Assembly (NCBI GenBank): GCA_035627595.1
Contig: DASPLK010000005.1
Location: 3,877 to 67,876, forward strand
Length of the DNA: 64,000 nucleotides
Reading direction: 5' to 3'
From: Minisyncoccota bacterium
Lineage (GTDB): Bacteria > Patescibacteriota > Minisyncoccia > Phycocordibacterales > Phycocordibacteraceae
The position numbers and the translations under genes were made by a program. The notes under the pieces are model-generated. The model was not told the origin of the DNA. It was given only the letters and a program-made list of their open reading frames with translations, and made no database searches. Position 1 is the first letter of the stretch. Every line of letters starts with the position of its first letter. Shown here piece by piece: positions 1,781 through 22,833 of the stretch.

Positions 1781-1856
1781 GCGCGGTTAGCTCAGTTGGT
1801 AGAGCATTCCCTTGACGTGGGAAGGGTCACAGGTTCGAGTCCTGTATCGCGCACCA
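1781..1856 (+). tRNA. tRNA-Val (anticodon GAC), CCA encoded
   Basis: The 76-nt sequence GCGCGGTTAGCTCAGTTGGTAGAGCATTCCCTTGACGTGGGAAGGGTCACAGGTTCGAGTCCTGTATCGCGCACCA folds as a cloverleaf with a 7-bp acceptor stem. The anticodon loop is TTGACGT. Confidence 0.9.
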
Positions 1857-10225: not shown

Positions 10226-10302
10226 TGGTGCTTGGGGGCGGATTCGAACCGCCGACCCTTCGCTCTTCAGGCGAATGCTCTAACCAACTGAGCTACCCAA
10301 GC
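10226..10302 (-). tRNA. tRNA-Phe (anticodon GAA), CCA encoded
   Basis: The 77-nt sequence GCTTGGGTAGCTCAGTTGGTTAGAGCATTCGCCTGAAGAGCGAAGGGTCGGCGGTTCGAATCCGCCCCCAAGCACCA has a CTGAAGA anticodon loop. Confidence 0.9.
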
Positions 10303-11833: not shown

Positions 11834-11907
11834 GGTGCCCCCGCTAGGAATCGAACCTAGATCATCGCGTTAGGAGTGCGAAGTTCTATCCATTGAACTA
11901 CAGGGGC
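11834..11907 (-). tRNA. tRNA-Arg (anticodon CCT)
   Basis: GCCCCTGTAGTTCAATGGATAGAACTTCGCACTCCTAACGCGATGATCTAGGTTCGATTCCTAGCGGGGGCACC has a CTCCTAA anticodon loop with one A:C mismatch closing the anticodon stem. The CC is encoded but not the terminal A. Confidence 0.75.
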
Positions 11908-12844: not shown

Positions 12845-12915
12845 TGCGGAATACGAGAATCGAACTCGTACCTGATGCTTGGGAAGCATCCGTTCTACCA
12901 CTAAACTAATTCCGC
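12845..12915 (-). tRNA. tRNA-Gly (anticodon CCC), no CCA encoded
   Basis: The 71-nt sequence GCGGAATTAGTTTAGTGGTAGAACGGATGCTTCCCAAGCATCAGGTACGAGTTCGATTCTCGTATTCCGCA has a TTCCCAA anticodon loop. Confidence 0.85.
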
Positions 12916-16773: not shown

Positions 16774-19242
16774 TTACCGGGTTGCCGGCGTGGTGGTGGA
16801 CTGCGTAGAGGGCTGAGTACGTGCGCCCTGCGGCTGCGTCGTGGTATCCGTCACCGGAACCTGCGGAATACCGAGTGCGCCTAGTCGAGATGCTGGATAC
16901 GGGTTCCTGTTCTGACGGAGCATAGCGAGGTCCTCTGCGACCGCCTGTGCATTCTCTGGCGACAGCGAAGCTACCGTTTCAAGTTGCTCTACGGCTGCAG
17001 GGAACTGTCCCGCAAGCGCGTATGCGACTCCGAGGAAGAAGCGGGCGTTTGCGTACTGTGGGTTGAGCTCGACTGCGCGCGCAAGTGCGGCGATAGCGCC
17101 CTGCGTATCACCGGTACCTGAGCGGAGGATACCGAGCTGGAAGAGCACCACCGGATCGTTCGGTGCGAAGAATGCTGCTGATTCTGCGGCCTGAAGGGCC
17201 TCAGATGCCTTACCCTGCGCAACCTGAAGCTGCGAGAGGAGGAAGATGGCCTGGGTGTAGTCCTGCTTGAGCGCGATCGCCTGCATGAGGTACTCCTCAG
17301 CGGCTGCTGGCTGCTCATTCGCTATCTCAAGCTGCGCGAGAATATACGGTAGGGTCGGATTGGTCGGATTGAGTTCCAATGCACGGAGGTACGCAGTCTT
17401 CGCGTTCTCATATGCCCCATCGATATCAAGCGGCACGACCGCCTGGTACACATTGCCGAGCAGGGTCCAGTTCTGGTAGCTGTCTGCGCGGAGGCGGGTT
17501 GCGGTGATCGCAGCATCGATACTGCTAGAAAGCGCAGTCTGGAAGCGCTGCTGGCGCTCTGCAGCTGGGAGCGACGTATCGTTTGCGACCTGGTTCATAC
17601 GTGCCATCCCAACCGTTGCGAGGAGCTGGTACGCACGATCAGATGGTGCAAATAGGAGCGCGCGTTCAGTTGCCTGCTCAGCTGCCTCAAGGTTGTTTGC
17701 GGACAACGCCTGCGCACCTTCTACGTATGCGATCTCAGCAAGGTAGCGGTTCACGACCGCGTATGCGGCGACCACAGACGCAAGAAGGAGGAGGGTAAGC
17801 GCAAACACCACCACGAACCCGACCCGCGGATTACGCGAGAAGATAATGCCCCATTCGTGCCTTCCCTTCCCATGCCTAAGCGATGAGATGAAAACACCGA
17901 CCATGAGGAACCCAGCGGCAAGGACAGCCGGACCGGGGACCGAGAATGTCATGAGGACGAATACGTACAGCGCGCCGGTAAATGAAGCGATGGATACGAA
18001 GCGCGCAAACGAATCTTCCGGAGCCCTAAAGAGCAACGAGCGGAGGCCGATCCAGAGGAAAAGGCCGATGAAGGAGAGCCATGCGAGCGCGCCCAAGGCT
18101 CCTGTTGTTACGAACGACGTCGGAATAAGACCGATACCAGATACGAAGTCGACATTCCAGAATACGGTCTCATTAAGTGCGCGGTCACGGAACTTGAGCC
18201 ACTGCGTGCTAAAGGTTGCAGGACCTGAACCGAAGATTGGGGACGAAGCATACGTGTGGCTGCCAACATCAAACGTCGACTGCCATGACGGACGTACATC
18301 AAGATAGTTCGCGCCCATCGCGGTAGACAGAGCGCTACCGATCGTTGCACTGCCGATAAGGAAGAAGAGCGCGATAACGAGCGTCACCAAAGGCGCGACC
18401 AGTGACTTGCCGTCCAAGTTGCCAGAGACCGGCTCGAAATCAGCATCAAGCGTTGTGACACCTTCAAGATCGGCCTCATCGGAGACTGGGCCGCGGCGCA
18501 TAATCGCCTCAATGAAAAGTCCAAGCGCCGTGAGGGCGATAAGGGCCCACACGAATACTGCGTTCACGACAGCAACTGCAAAGAGGCCTACGGCGATGAG
18601 AATCCAGAGGAAGATGCGCATGCGCTTCCCAAGGGCAAGGAAGCGGATAGCGAGAAGCGAGGTGATGATACCAAGGCCTGCCATCATGCCGAGATCCGAG
18701 AATGAGCCGACGATATTTGAGGTCGCACTAATTGTGGTCGGTGATACCTTCGCAAGGAAAAGTATGACGACTTCGGATACGAGTACGATCGCGAATGTTA
18801 TGAGCGCGATTTTGAAGAAGGATTGGTACTGGTCCACTCTACGCAGTACGAGCGCTGCAAGAGTTCCAAGCGAGGCAAGGATCAACATGAAGCCGAACGT
18901 ATCCGCTTCAAGCTGACTCCCGAAGAATGAGTGCATGACCCCGGCGCTTGAGAACAGCGTCGAGATAGCGTACGCGAGCGGCACAAGCCACATAGCACCT
19001 ACAAGCGTGATAGGTGGGACGATGACATTACCGCGAGTGAGCCGCGCGAGAATGAAGAGCATGAGAGCGACAAGACCGCCTGCCGCAAGAATGGAAACTT
19101 TCGTATAAAGGAACGGAAATGCGCCGAATGGCATAAACGCCACTGTTGCGAGAAGGCCCGTCACCGCGAGCACCCAGATGGATGCGGTATCGAACGAGAA
19201 GCGCTTTGAAGGCGCACCTGCCGCGTGTGTTTGATCGTACAT
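16774..19242 (-). CDS. O-antigen ligase (Wzy_C)-like polytopic membrane protein fused to C-terminal TPR repeats
   Basis: 822 aa. The first ~500 aa are multi-TM; the final ~320 aa carry TPR-like repeats (AAEQATERALLFAP..., YLRALELNP..., LARAVELNPQYANARFFLGVAY...). Confidence 0.65.
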   Translation of the reverse strand: MYDQTHAAGAPSKRFSFDTASIWVLAVTGLLATVAFMPFGAFPFLYTKVSILAAGGLVALMLFILARLTRGNVIVPPITLVGAMWLVPLAYAISTLFSSAGVMHSFFGSQLEADTFGFMLILASLGTLAALVLRRVDQYQSFFKIALITFAIVLVSEVVILFLAKVSPTTISATSNIVGSFSDLGMMAGLGIITSLLAIRFLALGKRMRIFLWILIAVGLFAVAVVNAVFVWALIALTALGLFIEAIMRRGPVSDEADLEGVTTLDADFEPVSGNLDGKSLVAPLVTLVIALFFLIGSATIGSALSTAMGANYLDVRPSWQSTFDVGSHTYASSPIFGSGPATFSTQWLKFRDRALNETVFWNVDFVSGIGLIPTSFVTTGALGALAWLSFIGLFLWIGLRSLLFRAPEDSFARFVSIASFTGALYVFVLMTFSVPGPAVLAAGFLMVGVFISSLRHGKGRHEWGIIFSRNPRVGFVVVFALTLLLLASVVAAYAVVNRYLAEIAYVEGAQALSANNLEAAEQATERALLFAPSDRAYQLLATVGMARMNQVANDTSLPAAERQQRFQTALSSSIDAAITATRLRADSYQNWTLLGNVYQAVVPLDIDGAYENAKTAYLRALELNPTNPTLPYILAQLEIANEQPAAAEEYLMQAIALKQDYTQAIFLLSQLQVAQGKASEALQAAESAAFFAPNDPVVLFQLGILRSGTGDTQGAIAALARAVELNPQYANARFFLGVAYALAGQFPAAVEQLETVASLSPENAQAVAEDLAMLRQNRNPYPASRLGALGIPQVPVTDTTTQPQGARTQPSTQSTTTPATR

Positions 19243-19320
19243 ACGTATATATGAATGCCCTTGTTAATGTCTATCAGTATAGCGCATGGCAGTTTTATGA
19301 AGTTTTCCCCGGTGGATACG

Positions 19321-19351
19321 AAAACACCCGCCTTAAAAAGGCGGGTGTTTT
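19321..19351 (-). terminator. intrinsic terminator of rnpB
   Basis: AAAACACCCGCC(TTAAAAA)GGCGGGTGTTTT is a perfect 12-bp stem followed by a U-run in the minus-strand RNA. Confidence 0.75.
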
Positions 19352-19359
19352 CATGTTCG

Positions 19360-19681
19360 AGACCGGTCCGATAAGCCGAATTCTGTACTCCTTGCGGAGT
19401 GACGACCATCTATCTGGGACCCCGGTTACCCGAGGCCTCAAGCGGCGCTCCCTCAAAAGAGGGCACGGCCTTGCACAGAGGTAAGGATTTAGCCGTTTCA
19501 TTCCTGCCTTCCAGCAGGCCTCATCCCAAGGGGATGCCTTTGGCTTTCGCCTCCGGCGTTTCTGCTCGCACCTCGCGGATCGCTCCGTGCGGGGGTTACC
19601 CGCTACCCTGCTGCTTGTTTCCAAGCCTGTGTTCGGACTTTCCTCTAGCTAACAAGTAGCCAGCGGTCGTCTGGACCGGTA
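19360..19681 (-). ncRNA. rnpB: RNase P RNA (bacterial type A)
   Basis: The minus-strand RNA starts ACCGGUCCAGACGACCGCUGGCUACUUGUUAGCUAGAGGAAAGUCCGAACAC, which contains the P4 5' strand. It includes AGCAGGGUAGCGGGUAACC, AGCAGAAACGCC and CCAGAUAGAUGG, and ends ACAGAAUUCGGCUUAUCGGACCGGUCUCGAAC (P4 3' strand with P1 pairing). The ends are approximate to within ±3 nt. Confidence 0.8.
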
Positions 19682-19745
19682 TATGCATTATACCATAATG
19701 AGAAAGAGCTGCCAACGCAGCTCTTTCTCTGGCACAGACCTTGAA

Positions 19746-22115
19746 TTAGATCTCGCAGACTCCCGACACACACGCGAGCTCCCTCTTCATCTCAGTCTCG
19801 TCCTGGCGCTCGTATGCGTAGAGCTTTCCGTAGTCGATGTGCTTGTAGCGCTTGACCATATCCTCGTACGTTTCCTTGGAAATCGGCTCGTACGGCGCGA
19901 GGCGGTAGACGTGGTTGCTTCGAGGAAGGAACGAGAGGCCACCGACGATGTCCCAGTTCTCGTATACCCAGTTGGCGACACTGATCCACTCATCATCACC
20001 GACCGAGATCGTAACTGATGGGTTGTGCTCGGTGTAGTTCTCCTTCACGAGCTTCCAGTGCTCAAGCTGATCGAGTGCGGTGATGTCGTCCTTGGAGATA
20101 GCGCCGTCTGGGCTCTTTACCGGGAACTCAAGCACGTACGTGTTCGCGGTCTCTTCCTGCTGGCCGACTTCCGGGTAGTACGGAACGCCCTGGTCCTTGA
20201 GCATCTTGAAGAGTGAGTCGGTAGCGCTGATGCGGATGCGGCGGATGTAGTACGGCGCGTGGCGCGGGTGCATACCGGATGCAACACCCAAGGTCTGAGA
20301 GACGGTGCCAGACGGCTTCACACAAGTGATAGAAGTCGACTGATTAATGCCGAAACGCTCTGCGTACTTCTTGTTGACCTTGATGGTCTCCTTCTTCATT
20401 GCGTCGAGGACCTTCGCGTCACGCACGGTCGCACAATCCCACTGACCGGTGATAGATACACCGAGAAGGCGCTCTGCCTTACAGTTGTCAGTCCACTCCT
20501 TAGAAAGGTACTGGAGGTTCACGAGGGTCGACTGGTAGGTGCCGAGGATAGTTGCAAGACGTGCTTTGCGGATGAGTGTCTCCTGCGTATCGCCTGCGCG
20601 CGCCACGACCTCGGTAAGGTTGCAGAACTGCTTAGACTTGAGGATGATCTCGCCGCACGGGTTGGTACCTGCAGGACCGATGACGCGGTCATTCTTGATG
20701 TACCCGCTCTTGCTCCAGAACTCCTTCCGGCGCTCCGGAAGCTGACCCATAAGGCCGCCACGATTGAAGATGCCGCGCTCGCCGGTCCCGCTCTTCATGA
20801 GCGCAACCCACTCGTCCATGAACTCTGCGTTCGTCGGCTTGTAGTGATAGACCGCAGAATTGTTTGCAATTGCACGATGTGGATCGGTCATGTAGAACTG
20901 GCCCTTCTTCGCGTCACGTACGAGCTCGTCGTCAAGGTCCGACAAGGAGATCATTGCAGAGCGACGGACACCACCGGCAACCACACACTCGCCGATCTTG
21001 CAGATCACGTCATGCGCATCAATGTTGCGGAGACGGCGGCCCTGGCGGGAAAGGATACGCTCGCGGGAGAACGCAAGAAGGTTACGAAGTGGCTCAGGAC
21101 CAGATGCTTTGCCGCCCATCGTGTTGAGACGTGCGCCTGCTGGGCGGACCTGAGAGAAATCAAAGTCGATGTCCTTTCCATCGAACCAGGTCTTGAGGCC
21201 GAGCGTAAGCGCATCACACCAACCTTCCTTGGAGTCAGCGACGACATGGGTCGGGAGCTTCTCGCCAGACTGGTATGCAATCTGCGGTAGTGCCTGGATG
21301 TTCGCGCTCTCAACCGAGTAGCCGACGCCGGTACCGCACATGGAGATGTACATGATCTCAGCAAAGTCTCCGAGCTGAGATGGGGCGATGTAGGAGCAGT
21401 TGTATGCCGCGACGTTGCAGCGGCGTGCTGCGGTGCCTGCGAACTGCATGAGGCGCATCGATGGCATGATCTCCTGGTTCAAAATAGCTTCGCGAAGTTC
21501 GTTGTACTCCTTCGTCGTGAGCTTGTCGCCAATGTTCTCGCGCATGAAGTCGAGATAGCGATCCACGGTTTCTACCCAGGTCTCACGGCGGCCTTCGTCA
21601 TCTTTCCACTTTGCGTATGTACGGAGGTATACGAACTCGCCAAGCGCATTGTTCTTAAAGTACTTCTTGCTCTCCTCAGAGAGTGCACGGACACGCTCGG
21701 GAACCTCGACCTGCTCATCGCGCATCTGCGCGCGCTTATCACGGTACAAAATGTACGCCTTTGCCGTCGCTGTGAAGTCGTTCAACATGAGCTGCTTCTC
21801 AATGGCATCCTGGAGTCCCTCGACGGTCGGAAGGAAGTTCTTGTACTTCTTTCCGAAGCGGGCGATTTCGCCTGCGACTTGATGCGCGACCAAAGTAGCG
21901 TCTTCTGCGCCACCTTCGCCTGCAGCGATCATCGCCTTGTGGATTGCAGCAACAATTTTCTCAAATGAGAATGGTGCGATCCTGCCATCACGCTTCTCAA
22001 CCTGCGGGATGAGGTCGCGATACCGCTTCGTCTCCTTACTTTCAACAACTTCCGCAACTACAGGAGCTGCCTTCTTGGTAACGGTGCGAGCGGATGTCTT
22101 TGCGGATTTTGCCAT
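19746..22115 (-). CDS. nrdJ: adenosylcobalamin-dependent ribonucleoside-triphosphate/diphosphate reductase (class II, NrdJ) with an N-terminal ATP-cone
   Basis: About 790 aa. The ATP-cone is KRDGRIAPFSFEKIVAAIHKA...YILYRD; the class II core includes GTNPCGEI and the SGVCEI C-terminus. Start chosen at MAKSAK (22115); the alternative is 22163. Neither has an SD. Confidence 0.88.
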   Translation of the reverse strand: MAKSAKTSARTVTKKAAPVVAEVVESKETKRYRDLIPQVEKRDGRIAPFSFEKIVAAIHKAMIAAGEGGAEDATLVAHQVAGEIARFGKKYKNFLPTVEGLQDAIEKQLMLNDFTATAKAYILYRDKRAQMRDEQVEVPERVRALSEESKKYFKNNALGEFVYLRTYAKWKDDEGRRETWVETVDRYLDFMRENIGDKLTTKEYNELREAILNQEIMPSMRLMQFAGTAARRCNVAAYNCSYIAPSQLGDFAEIMYISMCGTGVGYSVESANIQALPQIAYQSGEKLPTHVVADSKEGWCDALTLGLKTWFDGKDIDFDFSQVRPAGARLNTMGGKASGPEPLRNLLAFSRERILSRQGRRLRNIDAHDVICKIGECVVAGGVRRSAMISLSDLDDELVRDAKKGQFYMTDPHRAIANNSAVYHYKPTNAEFMDEWVALMKSGTGERGIFNRGGLMGQLPERRKEFWSKSGYIKNDRVIGPAGTNPCGEIILKSKQFCNLTEVVARAGDTQETLIRKARLATILGTYQSTLVNLQYLSKEWTDNCKAERLLGVSITGQWDCATVRDAKVLDAMKKETIKVNKKYAERFGINQSTSITCVKPSGTVSQTLGVASGMHPRHAPYYIRRIRISATDSLFKMLKDQGVPYYPEVGQQEETANTYVLEFPVKSPDGAISKDDITALDQLEHWKLVKENYTEHNPSVTISVGDDEWISVANWVYENWDIVGGLSFLPRSNHVYRLAPYEPISKETYEDMVKRYKHIDYGKLYAYERQDETEMKRELACVSGVCEI

Positions 22116-22236
22116 AGAGAAATGCGTGACGTGATAATAGGCGTCAGGACCTGAAGTGAACATGGAGGAACCGACGTAGGAGAATTGTACCCCTGTTCAT
22201 CTGGGGTGTCGTGGGGACATCGCACTCGAAAACGTA

Positions 22237-22719
22237 TTAGGGATTCGGCAAGTAGATCACGGCGCCCACGTCCCATCCGCGCTCGCGCGCATACCCCGCG
22301 CGCGTTTCAAGGACACGCGATACAGGCTGCGGTGGATAAAAGACATTTGGATACGTATCGGGGGAAACTCCGTGCTCGATACCCAGGATCTCTCCTGTGT
22401 CTGATAGCCAGATAATGTCTATAGAAATATGCATGTCCTTCATCCAGAAGCCATGCATATCAGTTGCTTCAAACACAAAAAGCATACCGTAGTCGTCCGG
22501 AATCTCGGTTCTACCTGAGAGTCCCTGCTGTCGCTTCTCGAACGTATCCGCTATCTCGAATTTAATATCACCCTCATGGGCGTATGTGACATCCATATCG
22601 GACACGACATCTGCTCTATTGGACACACTCAACAGGTGCGCAGCGCTGACTAAAATGCCGCCGAGCACGAGAAATGCGAAACCGAATATAAGGAAGGGAT
22701 TTTTCTTAAAAAAGGTCAT
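22237..22719 (-). CDS. DUF192 domain protein
   Basis: 160 aa with a signal anchor, a DTFEKRQQGLSGR...MHGFWMKDMHISIDIIWL core. Confidence 0.65.
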   Translation of the reverse strand: MTFFKKNPFLIFGFAFLVLGGILVSAAHLLSVSNRADVVSDMDVTYAHEGDIKFEIADTFEKRQQGLSGRTEIPDDYGMLFVFEATDMHGFWMKDMHISIDIIWLSDTGEILGIEHGVSPDTYPNVFYPPQPVSRVLETRAGYARERGWDVGAVIYLPNP

Positions 22720-22746
22720 ACATTTGAGTATACCTTTCGGATCGAG

Positions 22747-22833
22747 CGGAGACGGCGAGATTCGAACTCGCGAGGGGTTTTACCCCCTACCCGCTTTCCA
22801 AGCGGGCGCACTCGACCACTATGCGACGTCTCC
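22747..22833 (-). tRNA. tRNA-Ser (anticodon GGA), long variable arm, no CCA encoded
   Basis: 87 nt: GGAGACGTCGCATAGTGGTCGAGTGCGCCCGCTTGGAAAGCGGGTAGGGGGTAAAACCCCTCGCGAGTTCGAATCTCGCCGTCTCCG. Confidence 0.9.

Follow-up and report, generated by a model that had tools for sequence, protein, structure and literature searches.

RNase P, a universal enzyme, trims tRNA precursors at their 5' ends. Among its bacterial RNA subunits, P6 is regarded as a hallmark of type A and the L5.1-L15.1 contact as a hallmark of type B (PMC5066622), and P5.1 has been tabulated as occurring in type B only (PMC2858038). Type C, described from Thermomicrobium and the Chloroflexi, keeps P6, P16 and P17, has P10.1 and a P15.1/P15.2-type element, and has lost P13 and P14 (PMC7191817, PMC2858038). 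Diverged RNase P RNAs are carried by CPR genomes. Lui et al. (2021, PLoS Comput Biol, PMC8172020) describe many of these RNAs as lacking P13, P14, P16 and P17; the CCA-binding (UGG) motif was missing in 23 of 35, and RF00010 found 10 of 35 only with scores under its thresholds. They also report missing or extended helices and single diverged RNase P RNAs in CPR genomes. The RNA described below extends this published picture and overturns nothing in it.

The window, i.e. the whole stretch of 64 kb that was analysed (G+C content 54.7%), comes from a Patescibacteria (Paceibacterota/Parcubacteria-like) genome, and the region 19682..19356 on its minus strand is almost certainly rnpB, the gene of the RNase P RNA subunit. 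An Rfam cmscan of the whole window matched this region to RF00010 (bacterial RNase P class A) from position 1 to 367 of the 367 model positions, with 124 bits, above the gathering score of 100 (E 1.7e-37). RF00010, not RF00011, was the best model after Rfam clan competition. The only other Rfam matches in the 64-kb window were five tRNAs, leaving a single RNase P match. The score was only modestly above the threshold because several regions were treated as local ends. The initial annotation had proposed an RNase P RNA here, and the match over the full model length and above the curated threshold bears this out. The universal RNase P signatures that it had listed on the minus strand were all found (GAGGAAAGUCCGAACAC at 19644..19628, AGCAGGGUAGCGGGUAACC, AGCAGAAACGCC, CCAGAUAGAUGG and ACAGAAUUCGGCUUAUCGG), its P4, P1 and terminator were real, and the core helices covaried in 33 relatives. 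Annotation of rnpB fills in a housekeeping gene expected of every complete bacterial genome. The features are, in the order of transcription:

19687..19715, minus strand: predicted sigma-70-type promoter, near consensus, TTGGCA-17-TGgTATAAT.
19362..19680, minus strand: rnpB, 319 nt including both strands of P1, delimited with RF00010, the hand-built structure and covariation.
19680-19673 with 19369-19362, minus strand: P1, ACCGGUCC paired with GGACCGGU in the hand-built structure.
19632..19640, minus strand: P4 5' strand AAGUCCGAA with bulged U19637, inside GAGGAAAGUCCGAAC, pairing with UUCGGCUU at 19380-19373.
19613..19626, minus strand: hairpin at the P5.1 position, GCUUG-GAAA-CAAGC, between P5 (19631-19628) and P7 (19608-19604).
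19576..19608, minus strand: P7 5' strand (19608-19604), P8 (19603-19589, loop UAACC) and P9 (19587-19576, loop GCGA).
19558..19573, minus strand: P10 5' strand AGG (19573-19571), P11 5' strand UGC (19570-19568) and J11/12 GAGCAGAAAC.
19503..19557, minus strand: three adjacent hairpins, H1-H3, in the place of P12 in the hand-built structure.
19557-19536, minus strand: H1, with a base of 2-3 bp, an internal loop and then GGC-GAAA-GCC.
19535-19523, minus strand: H2.
19518-19503, minus strand: H3, CCUGCU-GGAA-GGCAGG.
19484..19500, minus strand: J12/13-type UGAAAC (19500-19495), P11 3' strand GGCUAAA and P10 3' strand CCU (19486-19484), with no P13/P14 between.
19444..19477, minus strand: P5 3' strand UGUG (19477-19474), J5/15 CAA and the P15 region in the hand-built structure.
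19470-19468 with 19446-19444, minus strand: P15, GGC/GCC, 3 bp.
19418..19437, minus strand: P18, GGCCUCGG-GUAA-CCGGGGUC, with a GNRA loop.
19387..19400, minus strand: P19 hairpin ACUCC-GCAA-GGAGU, between the P2 3' strand (19407-19401) and ACAGAA (19386-19381).
19318..19354, minus strand: intrinsic-terminator-like hairpin with a perfect 12-bp core, AAAACACCCGCC/GGCGGGUGUUUU, extending up to 17 bp and ending in UUUUCGU.

The P1 pairing of ACCGGUCC with GGACCGGU, proposed earlier, was found to close an RNA of 319 nt (19680..19362), in agreement with the previous estimate of about 320 nt. Upstream of it, a TTGGCA -35 hexamer (19715-19710) was separated by a 17-nt spacer from an extended -10 element, TGgTATAAT (TG at 19695-19694, TATAAT at 19692-19687). 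The hexamers match the consensus in 11 of 12 positions with the TG present, and two sites were found in the region against 0.7 expected. The predicted start falls on A19682-A19680, A19680 being the first base of P1. Promoters matching at least 9 of 12 positions were present in 20 of 34 RNAs, the window RNA included; in most of them, as in the window, the -10 element ended 41-48 nt before the P4 motif. The terminator hairpin starts eight nt beyond P1 and folds with -27.4 kcal/mol (z = -9.2). The 12-bp perfect stem of the earlier description was found as AAAACACCCGCC/GGCGGGUGUUUU, and the minimum-energy fold stretched it to 17 pairs. A consensus terminator scanner missed this rnpB terminator, which was picked up by folding, presumably because the scanner counted the T-run within the stem. 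A downstream hairpin with a T-run was present in 28 of the 34 RNAs (window included). Since promoter and terminator recur in relatives, the organisation as a separate transcription unit is conserved. The gene thus appears, from its sequence signals, to be transcribed independently from its own promoter to its own terminator, as is the stand-alone rnpB of E. coli. Transcription would start at about the first P1 nucleotide, and the hairpin and U-run would end the transcript approximately 10-45 nt past P1, after which the 3' tail would be trimmed, by analogy with E. coli rnpB.

Relatives were collected by scanning one genome for each species with a pattern that required the two P4 strands at a gap of 225-255 nt; this gave 119 loci (numbered with an L). 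The loci closest by blastn were from Patescibacteria: Parcubacteria bacterium C7867-008 (L058, 76% identity), several Paceibacterota, Kaiserbacteria and others. The gene order DUF192 - ribonucleotide reductase (RNR) - rnpB - TPR membrane protein - MurJ recurred at six loci (L058, L063, L090, L114, L027 and L113), and the same neighbourhood without the RNR was present at four (L003, L035, L087 and L119). This conserved gene order supports the orthology of the rnpB genes. The upstream gene (19746..22163, minus strand), previously labelled nrdJ, encodes an ATP-cone-bearing adenosylcobalamin-dependent ribonucleoside-triphosphate reductase. It matched TIGR02505 with 312 bits, below the cut-off of 340, and is best described as a class II RNR. 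For the downstream protein of 822 aa, the proposed O-antigen ligase function was not upheld, as no Wzy_C family was found in Pfam or NCBIfam and its matches were to TPR families at the C-terminus only. A motif search of the 64-kb window found neither rnpA nor rpmH.

The secondary structure of the window RNA was built by hand, with all pairs canonical. Helices of fixed length were mapped onto a MAFFT alignment of the window RNA and 33 relatives (34 sequences), and variable hairpins were treated as segments anchored by conserved flanks, each of which was folded separately. Standard pairs filled 93.5% of cells, compared with 34-43% in controls with the partners slid by 1-3 columns, and the covariation score was 0.497 versus approximately 0.1. 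None of 500 shuffles reached any of these measures. Changes on both sides were observed in 37 of 58 pairs, including all pairs of P1, P2 and P18 and some in P5, P7, P8, P9, P10 and P15. Covariation was found for the core helices P1, P2, P3, P5, P7-P11 and P15, and the compensatory changes in the 33 related RNAs lend the core of the structure the covariance support that had been sought for it. That P4 did not vary among the relatives is due solely to the search pattern, in which both of its strands were fixed. The maintenance of the reduced architecture by compensatory substitutions in dozens of species indicates purifying selection on structure. The catalytic core (P4 with U19637, J5/15, J18/2 and ACAGAA) is intact and under structural selection, as are J11/12 and J12/13.

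These data bear on the reading of the locus as a decaying rnpB relic in a genome that has a second rnpB or a protein-only RNase P (HARP) elsewhere. Such decay would account for a score of 124 bits, which is low for type A, for the missing P6/P16/P17 and L15 GGU, and for the failure to find rnpA in the 64-kb window. It is highly improbable, as all universally conserved core elements are intact, compensatory substitutions have preserved this reduced form in dozens of species, and promoter, terminator and synteny are conserved. Moreover, Lui et al. (PMC8172020) report single RNase P RNAs of just this diverged kind from CPR genomes.

In the catalytic domain, the P4 pseudoknot (AAGUCCGAA/UUCGGCUU) has eight of eight pairs canonical and the bulged U expected of conserved regions I and V; in its GAA/UUC extension both strands differ from the usual GGG/CCC. 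Between P5 and P7, the window RNA has a hairpin that is an insertion relative to the RF00010 model (-6.8 kcal/mol, z -4.0). Non-CPR type A RNAs in the scan have approximately 8 nt there, a stretch which in canonical type A carries the P6 5' strand, whereas the window RNA has a 5-bp, GAAA-capped hairpin. In 45 of the 49 CPR-type relatives the insert folded into a single hairpin, whose stem varied and whose loop was not conserved (GNRA in 12 of 45). Compared with dinucleotide shuffles, the inserts had a median z of -2.8, and 34 of 47 were more stable than at least 95% of the shuffles. By phylum, the hairpin at the P5.1 position was present in 54 of 57 CPR-labelled RNAs versus none of 50 RNAs from other phyla.

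A single P15 hairpin stands in for P15-P16-P17, with 19 nt compared with 44 in the RF00010 model. Beyond the 3 bp of P15 come an internal loop, with CGUG on the 5' and AGC on the 3' side, and a distal hairpin, CCCUC-UUUU-GAGGG, at 19463-19450. P15 was 99% paired across the alignment, with GC to AU changes on both sides, and the loop strings GUG and AGN were conserved among 49 relatives. In P18, all eight pairs showed changes on both sides and 96% were paired; its loop, GUAA, is the GNRA loop of class A, and L8 reads UAACC. P19 is a stable hairpin (-7.0 kcal/mol, z -5.7) that about half of the relatives have as well, while the rest read CCACGACAGAA, like E. coli.

The P6 pseudoknot with P16/P17, regarded as the type A hallmark, was not found in the window RNA. 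A residual P6-like pairing of GCA, just 5' of P7, with UGC on the 5' side of the P15 internal loop was considered and rejected: about 10 of 34 RNAs keep the three pairs, and changes in the 5' triplet are uncompensated. A kissing interaction of the GAAA loop at the P5.1 position with the distal P15 UUUU loop was also discarded, as the corresponding loops of relatives are non-complementary (e.g. GCAA/GCAA in L058 and L087).

The L15 GGU motif, which pairs with the tRNA 3'-CCA, was absent from the window RNA, and a GGU in the 3' loop was seen in only one of 49 relatives. Some other CPR RNAs keep a simple AAAUUUGGUAG loop in L15. With this motif lost, substrate anchoring is presumably CCA-independent. 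Among the five tRNA genes of the window, CCA is encoded in those for tRNA-Val and tRNA-Phe and not in those for Arg, Gly and Ser; judging from these gene sequences, a CCA-independent enzyme would presumably suit the three without it.

In the specificity domain, P8 was 100% and P9 approximately 98% paired, changes having occurred on both strands of each, and P10 covaried from AGG/CCU to AGA/UCU and GGA/UCC. J11/12, the first T-loop-like element (conserved region II), reads GCAGAAACG (19565-19557), and J12/13 (conserved region III) reads UGAAAC (19500-19495); they flank the P12 position and were kept as CAGnRACG and UGnAAC in 49 of 49 CPR-type relatives. The segment between them formed three hairpins in 35 of these relatives and one in the other 14. 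Where there were three, a GNRA loop capped H1 in 34 of 35 and H3 in 33 of 35, and each hairpin had 18-20 distinct closing-pair combinations. Relative to dinucleotide shuffles the three-hairpin segments had a median z of -3.7, and 30 of 35 surpassed at least 95% of the shuffles. The window's own segment is individually weak (z -1.8, with 6 of 100 shuffles equally stable), so that support for it is mainly comparative and comes from the relatives. A single-sequence minimum-energy fold placed an outer GCCG/CGGC stem around the three hairpins. This stem was rejected, since CGGC is invariant while its 5' partner varies and covaries instead with the 3' strand of H1.

UGAAAC directly adjoins GGCUAAAUCC in the window RNA and across the clade, and the hairpins, whether one or three, all precede UGAAAC. 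Canonical type A RNAs in the scan have the order J11/12 - P12 - GUGAAAAG - P13 - P14 - GGCAAACCCC. As all hairpins lie before J12/13, the three hairpins occupy the position of P12 and not the canonical position of P13/P14. The adjacency of J12/13 and P11 was found in 55 of 57 CPR-labelled RNAs, whereas 45 of 50 RNAs from other phyla had P13/P14 after J12/13. Together, the hairpin at the P5.1 position and this adjacency were present in 53 of the 57 CPR-labelled RNAs, i.e. they are clade-wide.

With class A RNAs (RF00010; E. coli M1 RNA and Thermotoga maritima P RNA), the window RNA shares P1-P5, P7-P11, P15 and P18 with its GNRA loop, the P4 pseudoknot with the bulged U (GAGGAAAGUCC...ACAGAA..GGCUUA), J5/15 GUGCAAG, J18/2 AGAUAGAUG, a UAAC-type L8 loop and a GNRA L9. 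It differs from them in lacking the P6 pseudoknot, P16/P17 and the L15 GGU, in the hairpin inserted between P5 and P7, and in having no P13/P14 after J12/13 and three hairpins before it. With 319 nt, it is shorter than the A-type mean of approximately 374 nt (PMC7191817). This compactness results from the loss of P6/P16/P17 and the rebuilding of the S-domain. The earlier designation as a compact type A RNA holds for the sequence and is incomplete for the structure, in which P6/P16/P17 have been lost, the S-domain rebuilt, and a hairpin at the P5.1 position and P19 gained. The window RNA is type A by sequence and Rfam, not by full architecture: three structural marks of type A are missing, namely P6/P16/P17, the canonical P13/P14 placement and the L15 GGU.

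A junction in which J12/13 runs straight into P11 is the layout of type B and archaeal RNAs. The S-domain junction of the window RNA is arranged as in type B (B. subtilis). Further traits shared with class B (RF00011; Bacillus subtilis) are a hairpin between P5 and P7, the absence of P6/P16/P17 and of P13/P14 after J12/13, and P19. A type B (Bacillus-like) or type C RNA might therefore be suspected in place of type A, all the more as P5.1 has been listed for type B alone (PMC2858038) and the missing P6 is the type A hallmark (PMC5066622). This assignment is extremely improbable. Of the type B elements P5.1 with P15.1, P10.1 and P15.2, only a hairpin at the P5.1 position was found; P10.1 is absent because P10 and P11 are contiguous (19573-19568), and without P15.1/P15.2 an L5.1-L15.1 contact is impossible. 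Type C keeps P6/P16/P17, which are missing here together with P10.1. In addition, RF00010 won the clan competition, and the primary sequence of P4-P5, P8, P18 and J18/2 is type A-like.

Within type A, the junction is shared with RNAs that have a minimal S-domain, both from Planctomycetales (L034) and from CPR genomes with one hairpin (L042, L090). These read ACAGAGACGA - hairpin - GUGAAAC - P11 3' strand and have one hairpin versus three in the window RNA; L034 also still has a long P15-P17 region containing GGGUAGGC, which the window RNA lacks. With the CPR RNAs of Lui et al. (2021, PMC8172020), the window RNA shares the lineage, low RF00010 scores and the loss of P16/P17 and of the CCA-binding motif. 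The most extreme of those published examples lack P12-like, P15 and P18 elements, whereas the window RNA keeps them. In the literature searched, the coverage of which was incomplete and took in part of Lui et al., neither the P5.1-position hairpin nor the row of three hairpins ahead of J12/13 was found to be described for CPR RNAs.

The intergenic gap, estimated earlier at roughly 500 nt, measures 503 nt (19243..19745, between the downstream gene start at 19242 and the upstream gene stop at 19746) and contains only short ORFs on both strands. A small protein-coding gene at 19146..19484 (+), 19399..19659 (+), 19295..19624 (-) or 19161..19409 (-), with an incidental RNA signal, would find room in these ORFs of 82-112 codons, but is effectively refuted by the RF00010 match (E 1.7e-37), by variation among relatives that follows paired compensatory helix changes and not codon position, and by the lack of any Pfam match even at E<=1 for these four ORFs and for 19683..20018. 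The ORFs had rightly been called spurious, and the exact gene model of promoter, 319-nt RNA and terminator given here replaces the ORF calls across 19146..19659.

We tentatively suggest that the clade-wide features define a Patescibacteria-wide and formally undescribed architectural class of RNase P RNA derived from type A, a proposal that we consider somewhat less probable than an even chance. Its members may have in common (i) a hairpin at the P5.1 position that replaces the P6/P16/P17 pseudoknot module, (ii) J12/13 joined directly to P11, a layout also seen in type B and archaeal RNAs, (iii) a GNRA-capped array of three hairpins, in most members, where P12 normally stands alone, and (iv) in P15, a conserved internal loop, GUG/AGN, in the place of the GGU that pairs with CCA. 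If correct, the class would represent a third independent bacterial way of bracing the catalytic and specificity domains. In the CPR RNase P RNAs, a hairpin at the P5.1 position has taken the place of the P6 module, the S-domain has been rebuilt, and the CCA-binding loop has been lost in company with tRNA genes that do not encode CCA. They are a natural experiment in exchanging the periphery while the catalytic core stays fixed.

The RNA folds into two domains: a catalytic one with P1-P5, P15, P18 and P19, centred on the pseudoknot of P4 with its bulged U, and a specificity domain with P7-P11 and the three hairpins, which bears J11/12 and J12/13. On the model of established RNase P biology and solved structures, the specificity domain would read the T/D-loop elbow of the pre-tRNA. 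The 5' leader would then be cut by phosphodiester hydrolysis at +1, by the P4/J5-15/J18-2 core acting with RnpA (encoded elsewhere) and Mg2+. Contacts of L18 with P8, L8 with P4 and possibly L9 with P1 would join the two domains. The tertiary bracing lost with P6 and P13/P14 is probably made up for by the P5.1-position hairpin and by the GNRA loops capping H1 and H3.

The clade-wide architecture is a modest lead for RNase P specialists and for the design of covariance models. RF00010 detects the clade only marginally, and a CPR-specific covariance model would improve completeness checks of CPR genomes. The proposed class, if real, would explain RF00010 scores at or below the threshold: of the 18 relatives that were scored, 14 reached 101-136 bits and four fell below 100.

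Nine RNase P RNAs of the CPR carried a single hairpin between J11/12 and J12/13 (L042, L043, L051, L053, L070, L090, L091, L100 and L116, loci from the P4-strand pattern scan). The P12 position of these RNAs was occupied by a 4-bp stem with the conserved hexaloop UUNAGU (UUAAGU, UUCAGU or UUUAGU), and four of the nine (L043, L053, L100, L116) scored below the RF00010 gathering threshold. The same minimal S-domain junction was found in L034, a locus of an uncultured member of the Planctomycetales, in the order ACAGAGACGA, GCCCC UUCACU GGGG, AGUGAAAC and P11 3' strand, so loss of P13/P14 is not confined to the CPR. Despite this CPR-like junction, L034 retained a long P15–P17 region with GGGUAGGC. 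The RNA of L038, labelled uncultured Candidatus Saccharibacteria, had a canonical type A layout, with no hairpin in the P5–P7 interval and with P13/P14 present 3' of GUGAAAU. This layout was absent from the remaining CPR-labelled RNAs. The contig may have been mislabelled or have come from contamination, or L038 may be a genuine exception.

P15 also varied within the CPR. In L012, L021, L084 and L086 it was capped by a simple 11-nt loop (AAAUUUGGUAG or AAAUAUGGUAG) that kept the GGU, whereas the window's clade had a GUG/AGN internal loop with a distal hairpin. The CPR thus contain two distinct P15 solutions. The window contained five tRNA genes:

1781–1853, plus strand: tRNA gene
10229–10302, minus strand: tRNA gene
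11836–11907, minus strand: tRNA gene
12845–12915, minus strand: tRNA gene
22747–22833, minus strand: tRNA-Ser(GGA) gene (also delimited as 22746–22833), upstream of the RNR-rnpB block

CCA was encoded after tRNA-Val and tRNA-Phe only, and not after tRNA-Arg (CCC), tRNA-Gly (CUG) or tRNA-Ser (CUC). CCA encoding was mixed in the same genome whose RNase P RNA is without the CCA-pairing GGU.

Three further features surrounded rnpB and the class II ribonucleoside-triphosphate reductase (RNR) gene:

16774–19242, minus strand: 822-aa protein gene, downstream of rnpB
19700–19729, minus strand: perfect 13-bp hairpin, GAGAAAGAGCUGC-GUUG-GCAGCUCUUUCUC
22237–22719, minus strand: DUF192 protein gene, upstream of the RNR-rnpB block

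The hairpin (−24.6 kcal/mol, z −7.0) lay 17 nt 3' of the RNR stop codon, and no U-run followed it. Its loop and 3' arm contain TTGGCA (19715–19710), the −35 hexamer from which rnpB is predicted to be transcribed, so one stretch of DNA would serve both to terminate or stabilise the RNR transcript and to initiate that of rnpB.

In the 822-aa protein, labelled an O-antigen ligase, family matches were limited to TPR hits at the C-terminus; no Pfam or NCBIfam family matched the first ~600 aa, leaving that label unsupported. The protein was kept beside rnpB and MurJ in many Paceibacterota (25–64% identity). A DUF192 gene was also upstream at L058, L063, L087 and other loci; the tRNA-Ser(GGA) gene lay upstream of the RNR-rnpB block in the window. 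DUF192-rnpB linkage was found in ~30 retrieved CPR loci, including loci without the RNR gene.
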